Source of the DNA: Candidatus Scalinduaceae bacterium
GTDB taxonomy: Bacteria > Planctomycetota > Brocadiia > Brocadiales > Scalinduaceae
NCBI GenBank assembly: GCA_046759445.1
Contig: JBHICG010000012.1
Location: forward strand, 1 to 63,712
Direction: 5' to 3'
DNA length: 63,712 nucleotides
This document shows positions 12,744 through 29,419 of this stretch, one piece after another; positions within the stretch are counted from its first letter, which is position 1, and every line of letters begins with the position of its first letter. The position numbers were made by a program, and so were the translations under genes. A model generated the notes under the pieces. That model was given only the letters and a program-made list of their open reading frames with translations, had not been told where the DNA came from and searched no databases.

Positions 12744-14000
12744 ATGAAAAGAAAGCATTTATTAGTTTTATTCTCAATGATGTTAATTTCATTATTAATA
12801 GGTTGTTTTCAATTTAGACCTATAACCCCTTCTTACCCCTATACTCTAGATGAAGAGTTACAAATGGGAAAATATGTGCCAAAAATTGACAATTTTATTA
12901 TTATTCTGGATTCTTCATCATCCATGAGTGTAACTTACGAAGACAAGGCCGATAGGGGGTATTCCAAGTTTAAGGTTGCTAAAGATGTTATAAGACGGAT
13001 AAATAATACTATACCTGAGATGAAAATTAACGGCGCCCTTCAGACATTTGGTCATGGGATTGTGAAACCGATTAAACAGACAGAGACCGTATATGGACTG
13101 ACCGCTTATTCCAGATCTGGTTTGGAACAAAGTTTAAACAGTGTAAAGTCTCCTGCTGAAGGTAATAGCCCGGCCGGGCTTGCCATTGAAGCTATAAGTA
13201 ATATTATAGTAACTGCTAAAGGTGAGAATGCTGTAATTTTAATAAGTGACGGTGAAAATCTGGAAAATGATCCGCTGATGAAGGTTAGGGCTCTAAAAAA
13301 TAGGTATGGAGATAGGACCTGCCTTTACACCATTTGGGTAGGAAACAAACCTGAAGGTAAAACATTTATGGAAAAACTTGCTGGAGAAATGGAATGCGGT
13401 TTTTCAACATCTGTTGATGAAATTGCATCAAGCGAAGATATGACAAATTTCGTAAGAAAAGTATTTCTTACAAGGTATAGAGATAGTGATAAAGACGGAG
13501 TCTTGGATCACCTTGATAAGTGTCCTGACACTCCAATTGGCGTTAAAGTGGATGAGACAGGATGTCCCAAAGTCAGCCGAATGGATAGTGATGGTGATGG
13601 TGTTTATGATAATCGTGATGAATGTCCTGATACACCGAAAGGTGCCATTGTTGACGATAGAGGTTGCTGGGTTGTCAAGGGTGTGCAATTTGATTATAAA
13701 AAGTGGGATATTAAATCCCAGTATAATTCAAACCTGGACAATGTTGTAAATATTTTAATAAGAAACCCGGGATTGAAAATAAGAATAGAAGGACATACCG
13801 ACGATATAGGGTCAATGAAATATAATCTAGAGCTTTCTCAAAACAGGGCTCAAGCAATTAAGGATTATCTGGTTGGAAAGGGTGTAGATCAATCACGAAT
13901 CTCTATAACCGGACTTGGATATTCACAACCGATTGCAGGTAATGATACACCTGAGGGACGTGCCTTGAACCGAAGGGCTGAACTAATACCTGTAAGATAG
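12744..14000 (+). CDS. OmpA-family lipoprotein with vWA domain and TSP3-like Ca-binding repeats
   Basis: LLIGC lipobox; DSSSSM MIDAS; two DSDxDGV..D.CPDTP repeats; IEGHTD..G...YN..LS..RA and NRR. Confidence 0.92.
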   Translation: MKRKHLLVLFSMMLISLLIGCFQFRPITPSYPYTLDEELQMGKYVPKIDNFIIILDSSSSMSVTYEDKADRGYSKFKVAKDVIRRINNTIPEMKINGALQTFGHGIVKPIKQTETVYGLTAYSRSGLEQSLNSVKSPAEGNSPAGLAIEAISNIIVTAKGENAVILISDGENLENDPLMKVRALKNRYGDRTCLYTIWVGNKPEGKTFMEKLAGEMECGFSTSVDEIASSEDMTNFVRKVFLTRYRDSDKDGVLDHLDKCPDTPIGVKVDETGCPKVSRMDSDGDGVYDNRDECPDTPKGAIVDDRGCWVVKGVQFDYKKWDIKSQYNSNLDNVVNILIRNPGLKIRIEGHTDDIGSMKYNLELSQNRAQAIKDYLVGKGVDQSRISITGLGYSQPIAGNDTPEGRALNRRAELIPVR

Positions 14001-14248
14001 TTGACTCGAGCGAACGAAGGGATTTTTCCCTATCGATCTACAGTTCAGGCTGACAATATCGTGTTTCTGCAACAGATACTACTTATGCGACTTAGTTCGA
14101 TCGACTCGGACAATGGTTGGGTTGTGTATAACTTTTCGTACCGATTAAGATATACTCTGTCGTATTGTAATTCTAAAATCGTAAATCGTAATTTTTGTTA
14201 AAATTATTCAGGATATTTTATCAAGAAATTTTGTTCTTTTCACATTCT

Positions 14249-14749
14249 TTATCCACTTTTGTTTTCACCATCACTCCCATTGGATGAATTGCCAGCTAGG
14301 ATTTGACAAAGTTCATCAATAAAGCCTATCTGCCCTTTTGTGATTTTTTTCTTTGCAACAGCGATCGTGAACCAACCGGCTCGATCAACTTCTGGGAATT
14401 CCTGTTGCCTGCTGGAGCGTGGGGGCCATTCCATTGTGAATGTGTTACTTTTGATTTTTGAGGCATCACAATTCCCCTCAAAGGCCCAAACTGTTATGAG
14501 CTTACCACTCGGTTGCTTGATTGGAGTGAGAGCCATAAACTCTCCTGCAGGCTTAAAACTTGTCTCTTCCTGAAACTCTCGTTTTGCAACCTCAAAAGGA
14601 TCTTCTTCATGAGTATACTCTCCCTTAGGGATAGACCAGAAACTAAGATCCTTCTTTGTCCAGAAGGGCCCTCCGGGATGAACAAGCATAACCTCTAATT
14701 CATCATTGCGTATACGGTACATTAATAATCCAGCACTTTTCTTCGCCAT
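14249..14749 (-). CDS. NUDIX hydrolase (COG4119-like)
   Basis: HPGGPFW, WSIPKGE, AKREFQEET, WPPRS...FPEVDR. Confidence 0.9.
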   Translation of the reverse strand: MAKKSAGLLMYRIRNDELEVMLVHPGGPFWTKKDLSFWSIPKGEYTHEEDPFEVAKREFQEETSFKPAGEFMALTPIKQPSGKLITVWAFEGNCDASKIKSNTFTMEWPPRSSRQQEFPEVDRAGWFTIAVAKKKITKGQIGFIDELCQILAGNSSNGSDGENKSG

Positions 14750-14774
14750 AATTTAGCACCTATAACACTCACAA

Positions 14775-14798
14775 TGTCATTCCCGCAAAAGCAGGAAT
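14775..14798. repeat. TGTCATTCCCG-type REP-like palindrome
   Basis: tgtcattcccgcaaaagcaggaat; relatives at 15714 and 29329. Confidence 0.6.
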
Positions 14799-14937
14799 TT
14801 AATATAGGCTATGATAAACACTCTAGCAAGAAAATCTTAACTTATATTGTTGATAAAGCGGTAGTTAAAAAGTTGCACTTATTGAACTAAGGTATATACA
14901 AATAATCTATAAAAAAATTTTCAATGTTCTTTTGTTT

Positions 14938-14967
14938 TTGACAAACATCCATAATTACTAGTAGAAT
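14938..14967 (+). promoter_or_regulatory. Putative sigma70 promoter of the ECF sigma gene
   Basis: TTGACA-18 nt-TAGAAT, 48 nt upstream of the ATG. Confidence 0.55.
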
Positions 14968-15015
14968 TATGAATAATAATACCTAGCAGTAGAAACCTTA
15001 TAGAAGTCTAATGAC

Positions 15016-15636
15016 ATGGACTTTGATAGGCTTTCCGAAAAAGAACTATTGAATGCATGTATTCAGGCAAATAAAGAAGCATGGGATGCATTTGTCGAAA
15101 GATTTACCAACCTAGTTTATCATACCATTAATAAAACACTCAAGACTTACTATGCAGATCATCTCTATCAGGATTTAGGTGATATTCATAACAACGTATT
15201 TATTTCCTTGATGGAAAACGACTATAAAAAATTGAGGCAGTATAAAGGTCTTAATGGTTGTACGGTCTCAAGCTGGCTCATGGTTGTTACAACTAATTTT
15301 ACTCTGAATTTTATTAAAAAACAAAAGCAACACATACCTATAGAAAACAATACCACAGACAATATGGATGTAATAGAAAGGGTTTCAAATCCTCAACAAC
15401 AGCCTGATGAAGAACTTTCAGAAAAAGAATATGGGGAAATTTTTAAAGACTTAATAAATGATTTAAATGTTAATGATGTGCTGTTTTTGAAACTATATTA
15501 TGAAAAGGAACTCCCGCCTGAAGAAATAGCCGAAATATTAAATCTAACAGTAAGTACCGTTTACAGTAAAAAGAACCGGATTAGAGAGAAGTTAAAAAAA
15601 ATCGCAAAAAAGAAAAATATATTGCAAGAAAATTGA
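15016..15636 (+). CDS. ECF-type sigma-70 factor
   Basis: Region 2 (AWDAFVERF..LVY; VF..L; SSWL..V) and region 4 (EEIAEILNLTVSTVYSKKNR). Confidence 0.92.
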   Translation: MDFDRLSEKELLNACIQANKEAWDAFVERFTNLVYHTINKTLKTYYADHLYQDLGDIHNNVFISLMENDYKKLRQYKGLNGCTVSSWLMVVTTNFTLNFIKKQKQHIPIENNTTDNMDVIERVSNPQQQPDEELSEKEYGEIFKDLINDLNVNDVLFLKLYYEKELPPEEIAEILNLTVSTVYSKKNRIREKLKKIAKKKNILQEN

Positions 15637-15713
15637 GTGAAAAATGTCTTTTATAGTGGAACCATAATACCTGTGGTTTTTAACTGGAACTATGATTAAT
15701 GCATTATACTACT

Positions 15714-15782
15714 TGTCATTCCCGTGGCATATACCTACATAGTAGGCAAACAGGGAATCTGTTCCTGACTTTCGTCAGGACA
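15714..15782. repeat. REP-like element between sigma and anti-sigma genes
   Basis: tgtcattccc...gggaatc followed by hairpin tcctgac-tttc-gtcagga. Confidence 0.55.
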
Positions 15783-15837
15783 TGTTTTTCATAACTCGTG
15801 ATGCCACGAAATGGCATGAAAGTTTAATAAGAAAAAA

Positions 15838-17952
15838 ATGGACAGAATTGATGATTTTTTAAAGTCTCTTTTAAATAAATCAAAAAAAGATAGGGGTTTC
15901 TTACAGGAGAAGGAATACACTTGCCCGTCCGAAGAAATCATTGCCTGTTATCTTGACAACTTACTTAATGATACTGAGAGAGAAAAAGTTGAAGAGCACC
16001 TTGCAAGATGTGAGGATTGTCTCCAACAGACCATATTGCTCCACAGTTTAAGAAAGGAAACAAAAGAGAATGGGTACATAGAGACGCCAGCAGAAGTAAC
16101 TGAACGGGCGAAAGAAATAGTTCCGGAAAGTTCTATAAAGGGCCTAATTGAGGTTATCATTGAATTTGCCCGTAATACTATAAGGGCCAAAAAGGGTTTT
16201 CGGTTAGTACCATATGGGTCTATTGCTCTAATTGCATTTTTATCAATAGGTGTTTACAGCATAATGTATACTAAAACTCCAACAGTACCTCATGATTATG
16301 ACACGTCCAAAACACGAGGCGCCTCTCCAACACAATTTGATGAACTAGTTAAACAATCAGAATTAGAACCACTTGCCCTCTCTATAAACATTATAGGCCA
16401 GAGGAAAGATACTGATGGAAGTGTTCACAAGGTCGCCATTGAAGAGGGAAGCATCCTTCAATCTAGAGATGAATTTAAGGTTCACTTTGAGACCAACAAA
16501 GATGCCTATGTATACATACTCATCCAAGATAGCTTAAACAAACCTAATCTGCTTTTTCCTGATCCTAATATTCTACTCAATAACAACGTAAAGGCAAATA
16601 CGAACTATACAGTTCCAGCATCAGATCAGTGGTTCTGGCTGGATGAAAATGTAGGGATTGAGATTATTTACATCTTAGCATCAGAAAGCCCGCTGGATAA
16701 TATTAAAGCCCTGCTCCTTGAGATGGAAGATGTGGATGAACCAGAAAAGATAGTCATGGAGTTTGTCAAAGGCAAGGATACTGTGGTAAGGGCAATCAGC
16801 TTCCGACATATAGATGGTAAAGCCTTTAAAGAAATCATTGCTATTAAGAATGTAGAGAAGAAAGCAGTAAACAAAGAGGAACCAGGTTCAGAACGTTTAA
16901 GAGAGTTAATTGTCAGGGGAGAAAATGCCATAAAAAACATACTGTCAAGCAGTATACCAAACACAGTTAATGAGGACAGAATAGAAACAACGCTGAATGA
17001 CATAAAGAAAAATCTTATACTTGAAGAAAGCAGAGGAGTTGGAGGTATAACAGTCTATAAAAAGGCTGCCCCCGCTGTAGTCCTTGTTGTAACCAATGAG
17101 GGGGAAGGTTCGGGTTCTATTCTGGATAGAGAAGGTCATGTTCTGACCAACTGGCATGTGGTGCAAGGGTATGATAGGGTAGCTGTTTTCTTCAAACCGA
17201 AAAAAGACATAGAATTAAAAGGAGAGCCGCTATATTTCGCCAAAGTTATCAAGGTGGATCAAGTAACCGATCTTGCTCTTTTAAAGATTGAAAACCCACC
17301 TGATAATCTTCCTATTCTGGAACTGGGTAATATAAATGATGTAGAAGTTGCTCAGGATGTCCATGCCATAGGTCACCCAGGAGGAGACATTTGGACCTAT
17401 ACCAAGGGAATAATCAGCCAGATAAGGCCGAACTATGAGTGGGCATATGATAACACGGTCTTACATGAAAGTAAGGTTATCCAGACCCAGACCCCAATCA
17501 ATCCAGGCAGCTCTGGTAGCCCACTCTTGAATGATAATGCTGAGATTATAGGAATAAACTCCTTTATAAAAAAAGGTGAGGGTCTAAACTTTGCCGTTTC
17601 TGTAGATGTGATAAGGGAATTCTTAGAAAGAAGAAATAGTCGTCTTGCTAGAAGACCTCCAACAACACCCCCAATAGCACATGTCTCTCAAAACCCATCT
17701 TATTATGAGTATGACACCAATCGAGATGGGATAGTAGATGTGATTGAGTATGATTCAGATGGAAATGGAATAGCCGATATGTATTTCGTAGACTTAAATC
17801 AAGATGGGATAATTGATCATGTTAAGATGGATCAAGATGGAAATGGTATAATCGACTTAGTTGTTTATGATACGAATAAAGACGGTAAGTATGATACATG
17901 GGCTTATGACACTGACGAAGACGGTAACATGGATGAATGGCTTGGTCGATAG
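15838..17952 (+). CDS. Zinc-finger (zf-HC2) anti-sigma factor fused to TM, DUF4384-like domain, trypsin-like serine protease and DxDxDG Ca-binding repeats
   Basis: HLARCEDC; TM GSIALIAFLSIGVYSIMY; FKVHFETNKDAYVYI..LLFP..WFWLDE..G.E; triad LTNWHVV / DLALL / INPGSSGSP; five DxN/DxDG repeats. Confidence 0.88.
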   Translation: MDRIDDFLKSLLNKSKKDRGFLQEKEYTCPSEEIIACYLDNLLNDTEREKVEEHLARCEDCLQQTILLHSLRKETKENGYIETPAEVTERAKEIVPESSIKGLIEVIIEFARNTIRAKKGFRLVPYGSIALIAFLSIGVYSIMYTKTPTVPHDYDTSKTRGASPTQFDELVKQSELEPLALSINIIGQRKDTDGSVHKVAIEEGSILQSRDEFKVHFETNKDAYVYILIQDSLNKPNLLFPDPNILLNNNVKANTNYTVPASDQWFWLDENVGIEIIYILASESPLDNIKALLLEMEDVDEPEKIVMEFVKGKDTVVRAISFRHIDGKAFKEIIAIKNVEKKAVNKEEPGSERLRELIVRGENAIKNILSSSIPNTVNEDRIETTLNDIKKNLILEESRGVGGITVYKKAAPAVVLVVTNEGEGSGSILDREGHVLTNWHVVQGYDRVAVFFKPKKDIELKGEPLYFAKVIKVDQVTDLALLKIENPPDNLPILELGNINDVEVAQDVHAIGHPGGDIWTYTKGIISQIRPNYEWAYDNTVLHESKVIQTQTPINPGSSGSPLLNDNAEIIGINSFIKKGEGLNFAVSVDVIREFLERRNSRLARRPPTTPPIAHVSQNPSYYEYDTNRDGIVDVIEYDSDGNGIADMYFVDLNQDGIIDHVKMDQDGNGIIDLVVYDTNKDGKYDTWAYDTDEDGNMDEWLGR

Positions 17953-17996
17953 TGATAATAAGGTAATAGTCTAATAATTAGAATCGTTAATACAAA

Positions 17997-20900
17997 ATGT
18001 CACTCTTACAAAACAAAAAACTATCACTTAATACTACACTTGCATTTCTATTAGTGGTCTTACTGAGTACCCATTCAAGGGTCTTTGCTGAGACTACAGA
18101 TATGAGAGAGATGGCTCAAACTCTATGGGAACAGGGTGTTGAAACTTTAGAGGCAATAGGCTTTTACATTAGATCAAATGAAAAGACTTTTCAAACAGCC
18201 CTGAAAAGTTTAAATGATTCTTTAAACCTTTACAGGGAAATAGGAGACCGTCAATCAGAGGCAGATCTTCTGACGTGTATAGCATGGATAGCTATTAATT
18301 CAAGCAAGTTTGTTGATGCACAAAATTATCTGAAAGAATCACAAGAAATCTATGCAGAATTAGGTAGCAAACCAGGAGAGAAAGCAGCTTTCGAGGATAT
18401 AGAGGATATAGATGAAAATATTATAATTCTAGAGCTTTATATCGAGGCCTCTAGTCATATAAATGACAAAGATTATGTAGCCGCCTTAAAAAAGTACAAT
18501 AATCTCCTCCAATTATACAGAGAGATGGGCGCTAGGACAAATGAGGCAGATATTCTATTATGGATTGGGTGGATTCAATTTAATTTAAGAAACTATATTG
18601 AGGCTGAACATTATTTCAATGATTCTTTAACCATTTATAGGGAAATAGGGGAAAGGCAACATGAGGCAGATATTCTATTATGGATTGGGAGGATTCAATT
18701 TAATTTGAAAAACTATACTGAGGCTGAACATTATTTCAATGATTCTTTAACCATTTATAGGGAGGTAGGAGATCGGCAATCAGAAGCTGTTATTCTGAAT
18801 TGGATTGGGAAAATTCAATATGATTTGAAAAACTATATGGAAGCTGAACATTATTATCGAGAGTCGCTGAGTATTTACAGGCAACGTGATAGAAAGATTG
18901 AACAGGGATTAATTTTTAAAGATATAGCAGCTTTATATTATGCTAAAGATGAGAATACAAAATCACTCAATTATATCAATGAGGCAATAAGGATGTTTGA
19001 ACAAACCAATGATAAAGAGTGGATGGCAAATGTCTTGGGATGGGCGGGGATTATTCATTGTAAACGTCAAGAATTTTCCATGGCATTGGACTATTTTAAA
19101 AAGTCATTATTACGATATCAAAAAATTAAGCACCAAGAAGGAGTAGCAGAAGTCTCTCAATGGATTATTAAAGCTGACAGTAGCCTGGGCTACTTCAATA
19201 TACCTATTAAATACTATAAGCAAGCTTTGAATATAATCCATGAAAAAGGAAATCTACGTGAGGAAGGTTCTATTATTCATACAATTGGAAAAATGTACAG
19301 CAATAGAGGAGATTACAAAGAAGCGTTGAAGGCCTATGATAAAGCAAAGCAAATCTTTAAAGAACTTAATGACATAACCAATCAGGGGAATATCCTTGTT
19401 AATATTGGGGAGGCAAATAGTAACCTGGGAAATTATCTTCAAGCTATTGATAACCTCAAGGAGGCTTTGGAGATCTTTGAAGGATTAAAGGATAATTCTG
19501 GTCAACAAGCTGCTTTGAATGCTCTCACTGATGTGTATATCCAATTAGGGGATTATGAAAGGGTTAAAGAATATAACTTGAAAAGCTTAAACATAGTTGG
19601 TGCCGACAAAGAAAATAAGTCGGTTAAACTTCTTTCTTTGTTATACCATGGACTGGCTTTTGAAAAAGAAGGAAGATTTGAGATGGCATTGGATGTCTAT
19701 CGCCAAGCCCTTGATCTCAGCAAAGAGATTGATGACAAAATAAGTGAAATGACTATTCTTAGTTATATAGGAAGAAGTTATTTCGAATTAGCGGAACTTT
19801 CAAAAGCATTGGAATTTTATAGGCAGATACTCAAGGCAAGCAGAGAACAAAAGAACAAAAATAATGAATTAGTTGCTTTAGTCGACATTGCGCAAACTTG
19901 CTTTAATCAAAATGACTTTCAGAGTAGCTTGGATTATTCTAAGCAAGCCTTGGTAATAGCTAAGGAAATAGGAAATAAGTTACTTGCGGCAAGATGTTAT
20001 TTCCAAATAGGATACACATACGTATACCAAAATAAACGTGAAAAAGCAGAAGAATATTTAGAAAAAGCCCTAATAATAGATAGGGAAATAGATAGGCCAG
20101 AAGATATCTGGACATCTAATTTTTGGCTTGGCATCAATGCGATGGAAATTAATTATCAAAAGGCTAAAAGATACTTTAGTGAGGCAATTAACAAAATTGA
20201 ATCTATAAGAGAAAAGATTTCTGTGGAAGAATACAAAACAAGTTTTATCGAGGATAAATTAGTAGTTTACAGTTTTATGATATTAACACTGTTACTACTT
20301 GAAGAGTTTGAAGAAGCATTTAATTATGTTGAAAGGGCAAAATCTAGATCACTCCTTGATTTGCTTGGAAATAGCGTAAAATTGGAAAAAGGTAAAGATA
20401 AAGACTTAAGCCAGGAAGAAAGAAGATTACAGAAGAAGATTAATGAGCTTTTAGAGAAGATACAGAAAGAACATTCCCAGCAAAATGAAAGACAGAGAAC
20501 GGTATTAAACGTATGGAACAAAGAACTGGAAAAGACAAGAAAGGAATATTCAGGACTACTTTTAAAAATAAGGCGGAAGAATCCTGAACTTTACTCTCTC
20601 GTAAACGTGAATCCTCTTACCCTCAAAGAAGTTCAAAATCTTTTGGAACCAGATACAACATTGTTAGAATACTTCTGTTTTTTAGGAGAAAAATACAGAT
20701 CAGAACTTGGATTCCCCATCCCTGATTCGATCTTTTATTGGGTTGTAAACAAAAAGGAATATAAATTTTATTTAATAGAAACTCCAAAGTTGGTTTCTAG
20801 AATAACCACATTTAAAGAAAAGATAGCCACCCTACAACCAGATTATGAGAAAGAGGCTGAAGAATTTTATGACCTCTTAATAAGACCTGCAAAACCATAT

Positions 20901-22088
20901 ATAAAGACAAAAAGAATCTGTATTGTTCCCCATTTCGTGCTCCACTATCTCCCATTTCAAGCGTTGTTAAATGTTCCTGAATTTGGTGGGCTTGGGATAG
21001 CAGTTGAGCTGAGGGATGGGATATTTACTGTAGCTTCTGTTCATGAAGGAATGCCTGCATATAAAGCAGGCCTTAAATCAGGGGACAAAATTATGGCAAT
21101 TGACGGAGATTCTACCATCAATATGTCATTTCAGGAGGCAGTTGTTAACAGGCTAAGAGGAAAACCCTCAACAACTGTTTCATTAACAATAGAAAGTGGA
21201 GAAACGAAGGCTCGGAAAACAATCAAAGTAAAAAGGGAGACCATTGCGAAATCAAGTATTTATTCAAAATTACCTGATGGCAATACAGAAGATTTAATGG
21301 CTAAAGCCGGAAATAAACCCAGATTTTTAATAGAGGAATACGATATATTTTATGTGCCAAGTGCTAGTGTTCTCAGATTTGTCCTGGAAAAAAGGAAAGA
21401 GGTTTCAGACAAAGTTCTTGCATTTGGAAATCCAGAGTTAGAAGATGAAGACCTCAACCTTCCTCATGCTGAAGAAGAAGTAAAGAAGATAAAAGCAAGT
21501 TATCCAGAAACTGACCTCTACCTGAATGAGAGGGCTACTGAGGAGAAAGCAAAACGATTGTCTGGTGACTATAACATCATCCATTTTGCCAGCCATGGTG
21601 AGCTTAATCCAAAATCTCCCCTATTTTCATGTATCAAGATGGCTAAAGAGAAGGATGAAGATGGGAGGCTTGAGGTACATGAAATCTTTAACCTTAACCT
21701 TGAAAATACATCTTTAGTAACTCTAAGCGCCTGTGAAACAGGATTGGGGCAACTAACAGGTGGAGATGAACTGATAGGCTTAACAAGGGGGTTCATCTAT
21801 GCGGGGACTCCATCTATAGTTGCCAGTCTATGGAGTGTTAACGATAAATCTACCTCAGAACTGATGGGACTCTTCTACAAAAACCTGAAAACTCATTCCA
21901 AAGCCGAAGCCCTCCGATTAGCACAGCTTGAGATGATAAATGGTGAAGTAGGCAAGGGAATTGTACGAGGAGTAGGGGGAATTACCATCTCAAAAGAAGA
22001 CAAAGACAAACCACAAACACAAATGACCGTCAATGGCTCTCATCCCTTCTTCTGGGCACCTTTTATTTTATTAGGGGATTGGAAGTAA
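17997..22088 (+). CDS. Exported TPR-CHAT (caspase-like, clan CD) protease with inserted PDZ domain
   Basis: Signal peptide ending VFA; long TPR array; ERAKSRSLLD; HFASHG and LSACETG dyad; ASLWSVND; HPFFWAPF; S41-type PDZ FGGLG..PAYKAGL..GDKI. Confidence 0.93.
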   Translation: MSLLQNKKLSLNTTLAFLLVVLLSTHSRVFAETTDMREMAQTLWEQGVETLEAIGFYIRSNEKTFQTALKSLNDSLNLYREIGDRQSEADLLTCIAWIAINSSKFVDAQNYLKESQEIYAELGSKPGEKAAFEDIEDIDENIIILELYIEASSHINDKDYVAALKKYNNLLQLYREMGARTNEADILLWIGWIQFNLRNYIEAEHYFNDSLTIYREIGERQHEADILLWIGRIQFNLKNYTEAEHYFNDSLTIYREVGDRQSEAVILNWIGKIQYDLKNYMEAEHYYRESLSIYRQRDRKIEQGLIFKDIAALYYAKDENTKSLNYINEAIRMFEQTNDKEWMANVLGWAGIIHCKRQEFSMALDYFKKSLLRYQKIKHQEGVAEVSQWIIKADSSLGYFNIPIKYYKQALNIIHEKGNLREEGSIIHTIGKMYSNRGDYKEALKAYDKAKQIFKELNDITNQGNILVNIGEANSNLGNYLQAIDNLKEALEIFEGLKDNSGQQAALNALTDVYIQLGDYERVKEYNLKSLNIVGADKENKSVKLLSLLYHGLAFEKEGRFEMALDVYRQALDLSKEIDDKISEMTILSYIGRSYFELAELSKALEFYRQILKASREQKNKNNELVALVDIAQTCFNQNDFQSSLDYSKQALVIAKEIGNKLLAARCYFQIGYTYVYQNKREKAEEYLEKALIIDREIDRPEDIWTSNFWLGINAMEINYQKAKRYFSEAINKIESIREKISVEEYKTSFIEDKLVVYSFMILTLLLLEEFEEAFNYVERAKSRSLLDLLGNSVKLEKGKDKDLSQEERRLQKKINELLEKIQKEHSQQNERQRTVLNVWNKELEKTRKEYSGLLLKIRRKNPELYSLVNVNPLTLKEVQNLLEPDTTLLEYFCFLGEKYRSELGFPIPDSIFYWVVNKKEYKFYLIETPKLVSRITTFKEKIATLQPDYEKEAEEFYDLLIRPAKPYIKTKRICIVPHFVLHYLPFQALLNVPEFGGLGIAVELRDGIFTVASVHEGMPAYKAGLKSGDKIMAIDGDSTINMSFQEAVVNRLRGKPSTTVSLTIESGETKARKTIKVKRETIAKSSIYSKLPDGNTEDLMAKAGNKPRFLIEEYDIFYVPSASVLRFVLEKRKEVSDKVLAFGNPELEDEDLNLPHAEEEVKKIKASYPETDLYLNERATEEKAKRLSGDYNIIHFASHGELNPKSPLFSCIKMAKEKDEDGRLEVHEIFNLNLENTSLVTLSACETGLGQLTGGDELIGLTRGFIYAGTPSIVASLWSVNDKSTSELMGLFYKNLKTHSKAEALRLAQLEMINGEVGKGIVRGVGGITISKEDKDKPQTQMTVNGSHPFFWAPFILLGDWK
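18541..18900 (+). repeat. Intragenic 120-bp tandem repeat (TPR unit x3)
   Basis: Units 18541-18660 and 18661-18780 match at 110/120 nt by manual count; third unit more diverged. Confidence 0.9.
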
Positions 22089-22112
22089 TTGTAATTTTTA
22101 AAGTCAAAGAAA

Positions 22113-23039
22113 ATGAATACAGAATATATTGCAAACCTTGAAGTAAACAATTATGAAAATTATCTTCAATCCTTAAAAAGAGCCTGTAGTTGGGCTGGGA
22201 TTTCAAGAGGACGTGCTGTTACATATATAAAACTTGTCAGGGAGTTATTTGAAGCTGGTAAAGATTCTCGTGAGCATATTCTGGCCTATAATGAAAGTTG
22301 TGAGATTACTGATATCTTCGAGTTTTGGGAATCCCATGTTAGTCGCTTTCCTGGACTCAAAGGGAAGATTAAAAAATGTTTGGGAAAGGGAGCCACCCTT
22401 CGTGAGAACGAAAAGACTAATAAGTTTAATAGACCCAGAAATGATGCGTTTGCATTCCTCTTAGCAGGAAATCTCATGAGAGCCAATATAAAAGTTATAG
22501 CTGTGGATGGGATAGTTGAACAAGGAACAAGCTGTCATAAGGATGCAGATATTACTTTTGAATGGACTGAATCGGTTATTGATGTTGAGTGTAAAAGACC
22601 ACAAACAGATAAGGGTCTGGAAGAATGTGTGAAGAAAGCACTTCAACAACTTGCTAGACCAAGTCGACCAGGGCAGTTGGGAATTATTGCTATTGATTGT
22701 TCTGTACTCATTAGACCACCAGGAAAAGTTATTAATGTAAATTTTGATGAGCGTGCAGTGCAGCGTATTCACAATATTTTAGAAGTAAAAATAAAGCCAA
22801 AAGTTAATAAACAACTTGAGAGTAATATCCTGGGCTCTCTTCTCTTTGCAAGAGTACCAAGAATGACACCGACAAGAATATCTTCAATTCTGTCTCCACA
22901 AGGAAAGCTGTATATAGTCTTTAGACCAGAAAGTATAACTTCTATTTTGTGTATTAATAACCCAAATTCGTGTAATCCTGAAATATTCAGGTCTATATAT
23001 GAAAGCATCGGCATGGCCATAAACAACACTGCATCTTGA
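22113..23039 (+). CDS. Hypothetical protein with PD-(D/E)XK-like motif
   Basis: DADITF...IDVECKRP and GIIAIDCS; 24 bp downstream of the CHAT gene. Confidence 0.65.
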   Translation: MNTEYIANLEVNNYENYLQSLKRACSWAGISRGRAVTYIKLVRELFEAGKDSREHILAYNESCEITDIFEFWESHVSRFPGLKGKIKKCLGKGATLRENEKTNKFNRPRNDAFAFLLAGNLMRANIKVIAVDGIVEQGTSCHKDADITFEWTESVIDVECKRPQTDKGLEECVKKALQQLARPSRPGQLGIIAIDCSVLIRPPGKVINVNFDERAVQRIHNILEVKIKPKVNKQLESNILGSLLFARVPRMTPTRISSILSPQGKLYIVFRPESITSILCINNPNSCNPEIFRSIYESIGMAINNTAS

Positions 23040-23244
23040 CATCCTGAAAAATCCTACTTTTCCTCCCTTTTAAATCCAAATATATATTTTTTCATCATCC
23101 CATTCTTTTTCTCTGATCATATGATATTTGCTTACAAAATTTTTTCTTCTTCATAAGAAAAAATTTTGCAAGAAATCCTCTTTATAGGTGTCTATTAGTA
23201 CAAAGGCAATTACAACAAATTTAGCTTTAAAAGGAGGAGTTCAA

Positions 23245-23568
23245 ATGATTATTTTTTTTGGATGGGGACATCGTACCACGAAAGAATTTGGGCCAACAAT
23301 AGCATTGCACTGCCCAAATTGTAAAAATGACGGTTGGTGGCATTTGGTATCATATAAGACTTGGTTTACTCTATTTTTTATACCTGTTATCCCTTATGAG
23401 TCAAAGCATCTGTTACTCTGTGAGATATGCTCTCAAGGATTAGAACTCAAAGGAGACCAAATTAATAAAGCAAGAGAATTAAATGATAATACAAAAGCAT
23501 TTTTAGAAAAAAGAATTTCTGAGTCAGAATACTTAGACTCAGCCAATCAGATTGAATTACTAAGATGA
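23245..23568 (+). CDS. Zinc-ribbon protein (zinc_ribbon_15-like)
   Basis: AGGAGG then ATG at 23245; MIIFFGWG, CPNC, WFTLFFIPVIP, CEIC. Confidence 0.85.
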   Translation: MIIFFGWGHRTTKEFGPTIALHCPNCKNDGWWHLVSYKTWFTLFFIPVIPYESKHLLLCEICSQGLELKGDQINKARELNDNTKAFLEKRISESEYLDSANQIELLR

Positions 23569-23728
23569 TATTGCTTAACTTCCTTATGATTTGCAGTAAA
23601 TAAGGTTTTTCTTTTGCGTTTGTACCATTTGGGGTTTGTTATTATTTTTCCTATTGATTTTAATACTTTATAATTTTATTCTTTGGACATATTTAAAGGT
23701 TAAGCAAAATTATTAAACTGCGTTATTT

Positions 23729-24790
23729 ATGTGCAATAAAGAAAACAAGCTGAAGAAAATATTCTTAAGAATAATACAAAGACAATACTCAGTTGTTTGG
23801 GATTTCTTAGGTGAGTACTTCGAACAATGGATGAAACGAAGAGATTGGCTAGAACATGAAATTATACTTAAGGTTCTTTGCAGGTATTTTCAGAAAAGTA
23901 AAGATAAACTAGATTCTCTACATAAACAAATAAGGTTAGCGGGATCAGTCCTTATAAATGTTGATGAATTTAAAAAAAAAGCTGAAGAACGTGTTAATCA
24001 AAATTATTCCCAATGGGAAGATTGGTACGCTGAACTACAGGCTGTTGAGCTGCTTAAGAAAGAAGGTTTTAATGAATTTAAGAGTATAAAAGAGGGGAGT
24101 AATAAAACACCTGATTTTGAAGCAAAGAGAAGAGACGAAAGCGCTTTAATAGAAGTAAAGCATAAACATTTTTCTGATGATGACAAGATATTTAATGAAT
24201 TTGATCGAAAATTATGTGCAGAAAGTATCAGGCACAAAATACTTAGGAAGTCATTTGTTAGCAATTTCCAAAAAATACCAGAGAAATTTAAACAACTTTT
24301 AGAAAATCAAGATAAATGGCAGAGTTTTATTGATGGATTGAAAGATGATATAAAAGCTGGTAAAGAAAGATATATTAACGAGAACGGAATAAAAATAGAC
24401 TGGTTAGAGGATTTTGGAGAATTTAGCTTATCAGACCAACTTCAAAAAAGTCTGATACCGCGCCCTCGTTTTCCTGTATGTAAAGAACAGCATAATGAGC
24501 AAATAGAGAAGTTATATGATTTGATAAAAGTCTCTGTAAAAAAAGCAATAAGCCAAATAGAAGAATATGAAAAAACTGTTGACTGTAAATTCGATATAAA
24601 ATACGTAATTTATTTTATAAGCCTTAATACAGAAACGTCATTATTTGCTAGTGGTGAAGCTAAGAAAAAATTAGAAACATTAAAAAATGAGATTAATTGG
24701 ATCCACACAATTAACATTCCAGACGATGACCTTTCCTTTATTGTTCTAAAAAACTTCTTGTCGAACTATAAACCTTTTCCCACCTCGTAG
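23729..24790 (+). CDS. Hypothetical protein with PD-(D/E)XK-like motif
   Basis: YAEL..V..L...GF, KTPDFEAK, LIEVKH, KAISQI; very AT-rich. Confidence 0.65.
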   Translation: MCNKENKLKKIFLRIIQRQYSVVWDFLGEYFEQWMKRRDWLEHEIILKVLCRYFQKSKDKLDSLHKQIRLAGSVLINVDEFKKKAEERVNQNYSQWEDWYAELQAVELLKKEGFNEFKSIKEGSNKTPDFEAKRRDESALIEVKHKHFSDDDKIFNEFDRKLCAESIRHKILRKSFVSNFQKIPEKFKQLLENQDKWQSFIDGLKDDIKAGKERYINENGIKIDWLEDFGEFSLSDQLQKSLIPRPRFPVCKEQHNEQIEKLYDLIKVSVKKAISQIEEYEKTVDCKFDIKYVIYFISLNTETSLFASGEAKKKLETLKNEINWIHTINIPDDDLSFIVLKNFLSNYKPFPTS

Positions 24791-29328: not shown

Positions 29329-29419
29329 TGTCATTCCCATGAAAATGGGAATCTAATTGCCTTTATTATTATCCGCCTAGATTCCCGCTTATGCCTGCTA
29401 CAGCAGGGCGGGAATGACA
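29329..29419. repeat. REP pair (TGTCATTCCC ... GGGAATGACA)
   Basis: Inverted termini with internal hairpins. Confidence 0.7.

Follow-up and report, generated by a model that had tools for sequence, protein, structure and literature searches.

A candidate protease-driven sigma factor switch in Candidatus Scalinduaceae: an anti-sigma/HtrA-like protease fusion encoded beside a separate exported TPR-CHAT protein

For most pairs formed by a sigma factor of the extracytoplasmic function (ECF) type and an anti-sigma factor, how an outside signal starts proteolysis is unexplained. Here we describe three genes on 63,712 nucleotides of DNA from a Candidatus Scalinduaceae bacterium (contig JBHICG010000012.1 of assembly GCA_046759445.1, positions 1 to 63,712 of the forward strand; this whole stretch is called the window below), which encode an ECF sigma factor, a membrane-spanning zinc-finger anti-sigma factor fused to an HtrA-like serine protease, and an exported protein that joins tetratricopeptide repeats (TPR) to a CHAT protease domain. 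The trio is probably a signalling switch driven by proteases, a kind of switch known to date only as a fusion; what is new here is that CHAT stands as a separate protein and that the anti-sigma factor carries a serine protease of its own.

The three genes and their products

The genes lie on the + strand at 15016-15636 (206 amino acids, aa), 15838-17952 (704 aa) and 17997-22088 (1363 aa), with 201 nucleotides (nt) between the sigma and fusion genes and 44 nt between the fusion and CHAT genes (Table 1). The list of open reading frames (ORFs) matches exactly the three co-directional genes at 15016..22088 named in the first-pass annotation of this DNA, which had been made from the letters without database searches, and the lengths and match strengths of these ORFs are not those of chance reading frames. 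That annotation had also called the first product an ECF sigma factor, the second a fusion of an HxxxCxxC finger, one transmembrane helix, DUF4384 and trypsin, and the third a TPR-CHAT protein with a signal peptide, both proteases having kept their catalytic residues; all of these calls were borne out, as detailed below.

The sigma factor is recognized by the ECF model TIGR02937 over residues 21-195 (82.4 bits against a cut-off of 42.9, 2.7e-23), by Sigma70_r4_2 (30.8 bits against 25.7) and by Sigma70_r4, likewise over its Pfam cut-off; no region-2 Pfam model matched it at E<=0.01. Its nearest solved sequence is SigW (5wuq_A, 6.4e-6). With NF041236, the model for the sigma factor of type III-E CRISPR systems, it scores 34.6 bits against a cut-off of 100, and so is not a member of that family.

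In the fusion protein, whose topology we took from a hydropathy script and from reading by eye, a cytoplasmic anti-sigma domain is followed by a single transmembrane helix and a large extracytoplasmic part. Every Pfam match that defines its domains is above cut-off, and the hydropathy and the structure model agree with the layout. The zf-HC2 match covers residues 35-61 (28.5 bits against 22.2), and the ligands read by eye, C29...H54-x3-C58-x2-C61, fit the class I motif of zinc-binding anti-sigma (ZAS) proteins. Residues 1-117 are 39% identical (4e-25) to the free-standing, soluble anti-sigma proteins encoded in the Nitrospirota loci described below; the nearest solved sequence to the finger is RsiW, a weak match (0.055), and finger residues 31-70 are modelled with a predicted local distance difference test (pLDDT) of ~76-85. 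The fusion gene adjoins the sigma gene, as expected for a cognate ZAS anti-sigma factor. Outside the membrane, the Pfam DUF4384 match spans residues 210-285 of a modelled fold that extends over 181-325, and a second linker then precedes the protease. The DUF4384 fold is also carried by Ser/Thr kinases, S-layer proteins and zf-HC2 proteins in the protein atlas, where such matches are leads only. The model of the whole fusion has a mean pLDDT of 70 and a predicted TM-score (pTM) of 0.41, and can be trusted for each domain separately. Among relatives that carry an organism name, the one nearest to the fusion comes from Candidatus Scalindua rubra, where it is called a 'protease'; the two are 78% identical.

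The protease domain of the fusion is HtrA-like both in sequence and in predicted fold. Trypsin_2 matches residues 424-573 above its Pfam cut-off (95 bits, 7.5e-27), PDB profile matches to the HtrA family reach 2e-39, and the top Foldseek matches are Deg1, MucD, HtrA and DegS (~2e-15). The triad H440/D478/S559 is invariant in all 43 aligned relatives. No PDZ domain of the kind typical of HtrA, DegP and DegS (family S1C, with one or two at the C-terminus) was found in the fusion by Pfam, and the HtrA models of NCBIfam cover the protease part only and all stay far under their cut-offs (one scores 119 bits where 450 are required). In the C-terminal Asp-rich tail, annotated at first as calcium repeats, six DxDxDG-like loops can be recognized by eye, whereas EF-hand models remain under cut-off (~16 bits, E ~0.006). 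We kept the repeats and, as these sub-threshold matches are all that speaks for it, did not adopt calcium binding.

The third product is a TPR-CHAT protein whose signal peptide was read by eye. A 19-residue hydropathy threshold did not flag its N-terminus; the same threshold flagged an N-terminal hydrophobic segment in 9 of the 10 TPR-CHAT orthologues inspected, the exception being that of locus L013. CHAT (PF12770) matches residues 1105-1361 with 210.7 bits against a cut-off of 24, and the dyad H1200/C1246 is invariant in two alignments (10/10 and 18/18). A model of residues 760-1363 (pLDDT 76, pTM 0.73) retrieved Csx29 chains at Foldseek ranks 1-16 (E 7e-13 to 3e-10, query TM-score 0.40-0.44, identity 12-13%), DdvA (8rot_A) at rank 17 (3.4e-9) and separases at ~1e-8, which supports the assignment of the modelled C-terminal half to the craspase/separase-type TPR-CHAT fold. 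For the CHAT half of the Nitrospirota orthologue in L003, the only significant sequence match in the PDB was Csx29 (2e-7), and DdvA was not found. A close relative of the window CHAT protein carries the name Candidatus Scalinduaceae; with the S. rubra relative of the fusion, this makes an anammox planctomycete of that family the probable source of the DNA.

The CHAT domain is interrupted, at one of its loops, by a PDZ domain. The solved sequence nearest to this insert is the PDZ of the C-terminal processing protease CtpA (9jr1_A, 9e-20), and its structural matches are CtpA and CtpB. The insert is missing from all nine orthologues in alignment A2, and 5 of the 119 other relatives listed (clusters P0124-P0128) share it with the window protein, which marks it, as judged from these sequences, as a lineage-specific insert. 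Since it is lineage-specific, and since S. rubra has a different insert at the same place, the 'TPR/PDZ sensing' proposed in the first-pass annotation cannot be the core mechanism. The S. rubra insert (L001:9996-10190, residues 914-970) is a near-copy, ~55 aa long, of the zinc-finger segment of that organism's own anti-sigma factor (zf-HC2 2.5e-5, phmmer 3e-29), the DNA of the two being ~90% identical. Several of its positions match the window allele and not S. rubra's own, which marks it as a diverged copy rather than a mere duplicate made by the assembly. It places a finger of cytoplasmic type inside an exported protease.

The fusion and the CHAT protein share a short motif, RGVGGIT, at the entry to the serine protease domain of the one (context ...LEESRGVGGITVYKK...) and in a flexible loop of the other (context ...GIVRGVGGITISK...; residues 558-585 of the modelled fragment, pLDDT <50). 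In the fusion, E396 and R399 are invariant in 43/43, and E-x-x-R is the separase consensus. In the window, in L001 and in L003 the two proteins have RGVGGIT in common, in L005 they have RGVGG, and near-copies occur in both proteins of L006 and L007. Shuffled pairs have ~0.05 hexamers in common on average. A second copy follows DUF4384 in the Nitrospirota fusions. We regard the motif as a candidate common site of cutting after Arg or of docking; on the sequences compared, this is a lead and not a result. The Pfam Trypsin match begins at fusion residue 401, at profile position 2, and RGVGG was also considered as a mimic of the IVGG N-terminus that trypsin zymogens expose. This idea was set aside, because residue 558, which precedes the catalytic Ser, is Ser or Asn as in HtrA and not the Asp of classical activation; it survives only within the wider two-protease proposal made below.

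Table 1. Features of the locus, with positions in the window and the basis of each assignment
Feature	Position	Strand	Basis or remark
Sigma-70-type promoter-like site, TTGACA-18-TAGAAT	14938..14967	+	upstream of sigma gene; consensus scan, 11/12 matches; consensus match only
ECF (group IV) sigma factor, 206 aa	15016..15636	+	TIGR02937 and Sigma70_r4_2/r4 above cut-off
Sigma/anti-sigma spacer	15637..15837	+	palindromic repeat element 15715-15760 and terminator-like hairpin 15763-15780
Fusion: cytoplasmic zinc-finger anti-sigma domain, residues 1-118 (C29, H54, C58, C61)	15838..16191	+	zf-HC2
Fusion: single transmembrane helix, residues ~121-143	16198..16266	+	hydropathy script 121-139; model helix 127-143
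Fusion: juxtamembrane linker, predicted disordered, residues ~144-180, TRG at 158-160	16267..16377	+	pLDDT <50 at 138-175
Fusion: extracytoplasmic DUF4384 beta-sandwich, residues 181-325	16378..16812	+	PF14326, 49 bits against cut-off 27; pLDDT 80-93
Fusion: E396-x-x-R399-G400 / RGVGGIT at protease-domain entry	17023..17052	+	local pLDDT ~51-64
Fusion: HtrA-like serine protease domain without PDZ, residues 401-600 (H440, D478, S559)	17038..17637	+	Trypsin_2, Foldseek
Fusion: Asp-rich DxDxDG-type repeats, ~85 residues, 620-704	17695..17949	+	by eye; short beta strands, pLDDT ~63-79
CHAT protein: signal peptide, residues 1-31, cleavage between VFA and ET	17997..18089	+	by eye: KK in n-region, hydrophobic core
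CHAT protein: TPR array, residues ~36-760	18102..20276	+	TPR_12 (7 stretches, 7.6e-64) and further TPR families
CHAT protein: helical region and CHAT protease domain, residues 761-1363 (H1200, C1246)	20277..22085	+	CHAT PF12770, 4.2e-62
CHAT protein: PDZ inserted in CHAT-domain loop, residues ~995-1095	20979..21281	+	PDZ_2 at 997-1077, 2.1e-10
CHAT protein: RGVGGIT in flexible loop, residues 1324-1330	21966..21986	+	78 residues past catalytic Cys

Conservation of the trio and of the protease pair

Related loci were collected in one scan of species-representative genomes with an alignment of fusion relatives, which gave 80 loci; their ORFs of at least 70 aa were translated and searched with the window proteins. 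The counts that follow are first-round phmmer hits only and depend on ORF calling and phmmer thresholds, and organism titles are given as in the records. The HxxxCxxC finger was found on the protease protein in 15 of the 80 loci. A sigma gene lies upstream on the same strand in 13 of these 15, and in the other two, L006 and L010, the upstream sequence is just 146 nt and 2 nt long. A CHAT gene follows within 1 kb in 10/15, often with an overlap of a few bases; in L009, L011 and L014 a TPR ORF runs off the contig end, L054 has only 702 nt of downstream sequence, and the remaining locus, L019, is a genuine exception. Pfam CHAT was present in all 17 neighbouring CHAT candidates scanned, and zf-HC2 was matched at E<=1e-4 by 3 of the 5 finger-protease proteins scanned. 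Records that contain the trio are titled Ca. Scalindua rubra, Thermodesulfobacteriota, Binatia and deltaproteobacteria, and some bear the titles of Klebsiella or Enterobacteriaceae metagenome-assembled genomes, the proteins of which resemble the Binatia ones. Nine further pairs of fusion and CHAT homologues from protein searches show an identical value for the longest contig, which suggests that they too are co-located.

The neighbourhood search proposed by the first-pass annotation thus finds sigma factor, finger-protease and CHAT co-conserved across phyla. It is very improbable that the three genes are neighbours by chance, with no shared function. The 201-nt spacer with its terminator-like hairpin between sigma and anti-sigma would fit such an explanation, as would L019, a locus with no CHAT gene; against it, both the trio and the protease pair recur across phyla, and the fusion and CHAT genes are 44 nt apart in the window and overlap by 4-10 nt in other loci.

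The part present in all 80 loci is the protease module. A CHAT gene is found in 53/80 and is adjacent in 48/80. The finger is missing in 61/80, most of these proteins being alphaproteobacterial, ~400-460 aa long and equipped with a signal-peptide-like N-terminus. Within this finger-less set, CHAT lies within 1 kb in 36/61, usually divergently, and anywhere in the locus in 40/61, compared with a sigma hit in 1/61. The last two counts indicate that the core of the system is the exported CHAT and HtrA-like pair, for which sigma and anti-sigma are one of several outputs. The arrangement is exemplified by Phenylobacterium and other Alphaproteobacteria (L016, L021-L023, L029-L032 and ~30 more), in which an exported HtrA-like protease gene is divergent from a gene for a ~1200-1400-aa protein with a central CHAT; these loci have neither sigma nor anti-sigma nearby. 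These divergent genes look like a conserved two-protease pair. That CHAT and an HtrA-like protease recur together in many phyla, whether or not a sigma gene is present, suggests a protease pair of general use in the periplasm, with a role undescribed in the literature searched, and there is a fair chance that this underlying pair is a general module so far undescribed.

The same counts bear on a different explanation of the window locus, in which the exported CHAT and HtrA-like proteins would be a proteolytic effector or maturation machine (for envelope remodelling, defence or cell death), and the sigma/anti-sigma pair would tune or report on it with no cut of the anti-sigma factor by CHAT. 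That CHAT accompanies 40 of the 61 finger-less proteins and sigma only one speaks for such a machine, as does the placing of caspase-like and trypsin-like peptidases in conflict systems in PMC8195603 and PMC7159879. Nevertheless, we consider it unlikely: in the window, protease and anti-sigma factor form a single chain, which is hard to explain unless the outer module controls sigma, the same outer module is found elsewhere on other signalling heads, and scans of the remaining window ORFs showed no defence genes.

The exchange of heads is clearest in four Nitrospirota loci (L002-L005), all of which have a sigma gene close to that of the window (phmmer 5e-65 to 2e-77). Between this gene and the protease gene sits a gene for a soluble zinc-finger protein of 236-243 aa with no hydrophobic helix (L002:8085-8795, L003:8112-8822, L004:5944-6675, L005:3404-4114). 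The protease gene itself encodes a ~1020-aa protein that has a cytoplasmic CHAT domain in the finger's place, ahead of the same module of transmembrane helix, DUF4384, protease and repeats. Domain order in these proteins indicates that anti-sigma and CHAT domains have been swapped on the same outer module. A secreted TPR-CHAT orthologue is present in three of the four loci, within 1 kb in L003 and L005 and 6.7 kb away in L004; in L002 the downstream TPR ORF is interrupted by the contig end. In one relative, P0035, a PilZ domain replaces the zinc finger ahead of the same module, which hints at an output linked to cyclic di-GMP. From its domain combinations, the outer module acts as a sensing or transducing part to which different cytoplasmic heads can be fitted. 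A search of proteins 1233-3520 aa in length gave no longer fused form of the fusion, although as evidence this is weak.

A proposed route from outside proteolysis to sigma release

Of the systems known, DdvA-DdvS of Myxococcus xanthus stands nearest to the trio; by fold, the closest is Csx29. DdvA is a single-pass anti-sigma factor with a CHCC zinc finger and a periplasmic TPR-CHAT in the same chain, for which the authors propose site-1 autoproteolysis by CHAT, removing the outer domain, followed by site-2 cleavage by RseP; it is, according to them, the sole anti-sigma factor with a periplasmic TPR-CHAT of known structure, its trigger being unresolved (PMC11506125). The window shares with it an ECF sigma factor, a single-pass zinc-finger anti-sigma factor and a TPR-CHAT of separase/craspase type facing the periplasm. 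In DdvA, however, the TPR-CHAT forms part of the anti-sigma chain, and its active site is incomplete. The window TPR-CHAT is exported as a protein of its own and keeps the His-Cys dyad intact, and the window anti-sigma factor, unlike DdvA, bears DUF4384, an HtrA-like protease and Asp-rich repeats. DdvA-type systems are tied to a CBASS/CRISPR-Cas defence island, and no CRISPR, CBASS or known defence genes were seen among the 42 larger window ORFs in the scans run. By analogy, the window system would in effect be a 'split' DdvA-DdvS.

This precedent makes the locus less new than the first-pass annotation had it when describing a CRISPR-independent, extracytoplasmic analogue of the type III-E system. 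In type III-E craspase, the TPR-CHAT protein Csx29 cleaves Csx30, which binds an RpoE-like sigma factor, and DUF4384 is one type of C-terminal domain of Csx30 (Kato et al., bioRxiv 10.1101/2022.08.17.504292). The analogy holds in that a TPR-CHAT protease would be linked to the release of a sigma-bound inhibitor, in that the best fold match of the window CHAT half is a Csx29 chain (8eex_B, 7e-13) and in the presence of DUF4384; DdvA-DdvS is nevertheless the nearer precedent. The likeness to Csx29 is limited to a TM-score of ~0.44 at 12-13% identity, the window CHAT protein is exported, as judged by its signal peptide, whereas Csx29 is cytoplasmic, and scans of the window ORFs found no homologue of Cas7-11/gRAMP, Csx30 or Csx31. 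The variant closest to the Csx29-Csx30-RpoE logic is the Nitrospirota one, with its cytoplasmic CHAT beside a soluble zinc-finger sigma inhibitor.

Other described neighbourhoods share parts of this design. ECF54 of Actinobacteria has an ECF sigma factor with a subtilase, a TPR-CHAT and a carboxypeptidase-regulatory-like protein, the mechanism being unexplained, and anti-sigma factors of ECF25 carry a zinc finger and/or DUF4384 (PMC7826278 supplement). The window resembles ECF54 in that an ECF sigma factor is conserved beside a serine protease and a TPR-CHAT, but the ECF54 protease is of the subtilase clan and not HtrA-like, no anti-sigma factor is described with it, and it is confined to Actinobacteria. 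Kaur et al. 2021 reported EACC2-caspase proteins with variable C-termini, including trypsin-like peptidases, near genes for ECF sigma factors and TPR (DUF1822) proteins; the caspase-like head is cytoplasmic, the tails are sometimes transmembrane or extracellular, and an autopeptidase trigger was proposed (PMC8195603). The Nitrospirota proteins of L002-L005, which start with CHAT, fit this layout in outline. Unlike EACC2 systems, the window fusion starts with a zinc finger and not with a caspase head, and its TPR partner bears CHAT and not DUF1822. In the literature searched we found no description of an anti-sigma/HtrA-like fusion with a separate exported TPR-CHAT, the later ECF groups of PMC7826278 being outside its coverage.

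We favour, with a probability of roughly 0.55, the reading that the trio is a membrane-spanning ECF sigma/anti-sigma module in which an extracytoplasmic protease pair acts as sensor and trigger. At rest, the zinc finger of the 704-aa anti-sigma factor would hold the sigma factor at the membrane. On its outer side, the same chain would carry DUF4384, a working protease of HtrA type and the Asp-rich repeats. The exported TPR-CHAT protease, presumably encoded in the same operon, would be its conserved partner. A signal bound by the TPR array (in this lineage perhaps also by the PDZ insert) or by DUF4384 would turn periplasmic proteolysis on, and CHAT would then, most likely, cut the flexible linkers of the anti-sigma factor after Arg at R-G sites. 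One such site, TRG at residues 158-160, is kept among Scalindua-type relatives (alignment A1) and might serve as the site-1 position, because a cut there would leave a short stub outside the membrane. Once the bulky outer part was lost, the sigma factor would be freed by a site-2 protease whose gene lies elsewhere and, after it, by cytoplasmic proteases. What the sequences show is the domain content, the intact active sites, the topology as judged by hydropathy and by eye, and the co-conservation of the trio and of the CHAT and HtrA-like pair. That the finger binds sigma, that the two proteases touch, which of them cuts the other and where, and that a site-2 protease takes part are inferences, as are the signal and the regulon; the same goes for the order of events in the first-pass annotation, in which CHAT processes the fusion and trypsin and sigma are released.

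The main competing assignment of roles comes from the classical pathways. In DegS-RseA-RseP-sigmaE and PrsW-RsiW-RasP-SigW, a site-1 protease removes the outer part of a single-pass anti-sigma factor. The window system is like these in its HtrA/DegS protease fold and in that the sigma factor and, weakly, the finger have SigW and RsiW as their nearest relatives in the PDB; it is unlike them in that the serine protease is fused to the anti-sigma factor and has no PDZ, and in that a caspase-clan protease is a conserved partner. The fusion could then be DegS and RseA in one chain, its HtrA-like domain acting as the site-1 protease on its own or a neighbour's linker, and the TPR-CHAT protein being an upstream regulator or a substrate, for example a consumed inhibitor or activator. 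The invariant triad, the nearness of fold and sequence to HtrA, DegS and MucD, and the conservation of the module across all 80 loci are in keeping with this arrangement, and the RGVGGIT loop of CHAT is equally a possible site for cutting or binding by the serine protease. We nonetheless hold it to be doubtful, as HtrA-family enzymes usually cut after small aliphatic residues and not after Arg, and the domain lacks PDZ, the regulatory element of DegS. Furthermore, the Nitrospirota anti-sigma factor is separate and soluble and is out of reach of the outer serine protease, which points to CHAT-type cleavage of anti-sigma factors in this family. Within the scheme that we favour, we rate CHAT cutting the fusion against the serine protease making the first cut at roughly two to one.

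Several findings weigh against release of sigma through CHAT. Neither a site-2 protease gene nor an ECF-type promoter was found in the window. A cut at R399 would leave ~255 outer residues, probably too many for a site-2 protease, so that a second cut near the membrane must be assumed. The HtrA-like domain looks active and could be the site-1 protease itself. RGVGG is not a universal cleavage site, because CHAT partners of the Binatia/delta type lack the loop. The N-termini of the window ZAS protein and DdvA are not significantly alike (E 1.3). In L019, a sigma gene and a finger-protease fusion are followed by MmgE/PrpD, with no CHAT in 9.5 kb. Finally, as sigma and anti-sigma are missing in 61/80 loci, the protease pair must also act independently of sigma.

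A wider proposal, which we offer tentatively and at well below even odds, is that CHAT and the HtrA-like protease, tethered or secreted, form a widespread periplasmic two-protease cascade, the interchangeable outputs of which would be an anti-sigma factor, PilZ or, in Nitrospirota, a cytoplasmic CHAT cutting the soluble anti-sigma factor in the way that craspase cuts Csx30. The RGVGGIT motifs would then be cut sites, between R and GVGGIT, for self-processing of CHAT and for zymogen-like release of the serine protease from the anti-sigma factor. If this were true, one signal would have two outputs, a free protease outside and a free sigma factor inside. The natural 'split' form offers a cleaner test of a bacterial caspase-like protease as a site-1 protease, because the presumed substrate of CHAT is a different protein, both active sites are intact and candidate cut sites are conserved.

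Intergenic elements and surroundings

Upstream of the sigma gene lies a promoter-like site of sigma-70 type (Table 1), and TTTACA...TATAAT sites that resemble it by eye precede the sigma genes of L002 and L005. An ECF-type promoter common to six related sigma genes was not found: no 7- or 8-mer is shared by at least five of the six, and the sites seen are sigma-70-like only. A search with Rfam over 14000-24000 gave no match at E<=0.1.

Palindromic repeats of the GTCATTCCCG...CGGGAAT type have seven matches in the window against 2.18 expected. Intergenic copies of the GTCATTCCCG type lie at 14776-14800, 15715-15760 and 29330-29418, and also in the S. rubra locus (L001:3829-3876); they look like an element of this genus akin to repetitive extragenic palindromes or miniature inverted-repeat transposable elements.

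The upstream neighbours of the trio are a VWA-TSP3-OmpA protein (12744-14000, +) and a NUDIX hydrolase (14249-14749, -), neither of which was seen to be conserved with it. The rest of the window's larger ORFs are housekeeping genes, among them lpxK, leuB, addB, panC, lgt, hflX, efp and acetyl-CoA synthetases. Downstream, a 308-aa ORF (22113-23039, +) starts 24 nt past the CHAT gene. This ORF, P0004, was considered as a fourth member of the cluster and rejected, as it has a counterpart in 0/80 loci. The product, which has neither a Pfam nor an NCBIfam match, is placed by the protein atlas in a family of hypothetical proteins of ~310 aa (score 0.97), and its structural matches are weak ones to Card1/Mrr-like nuclease folds (TM-score ~0.35).

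In S. rubra, the spacer between the sigma and anti-sigma genes is 492 nt long, compared with 201 nt in the window, and contains, at L001:4700-5078, two small ORFs that by eye resemble an antitoxin-toxin pair of the HicB/HicA type.

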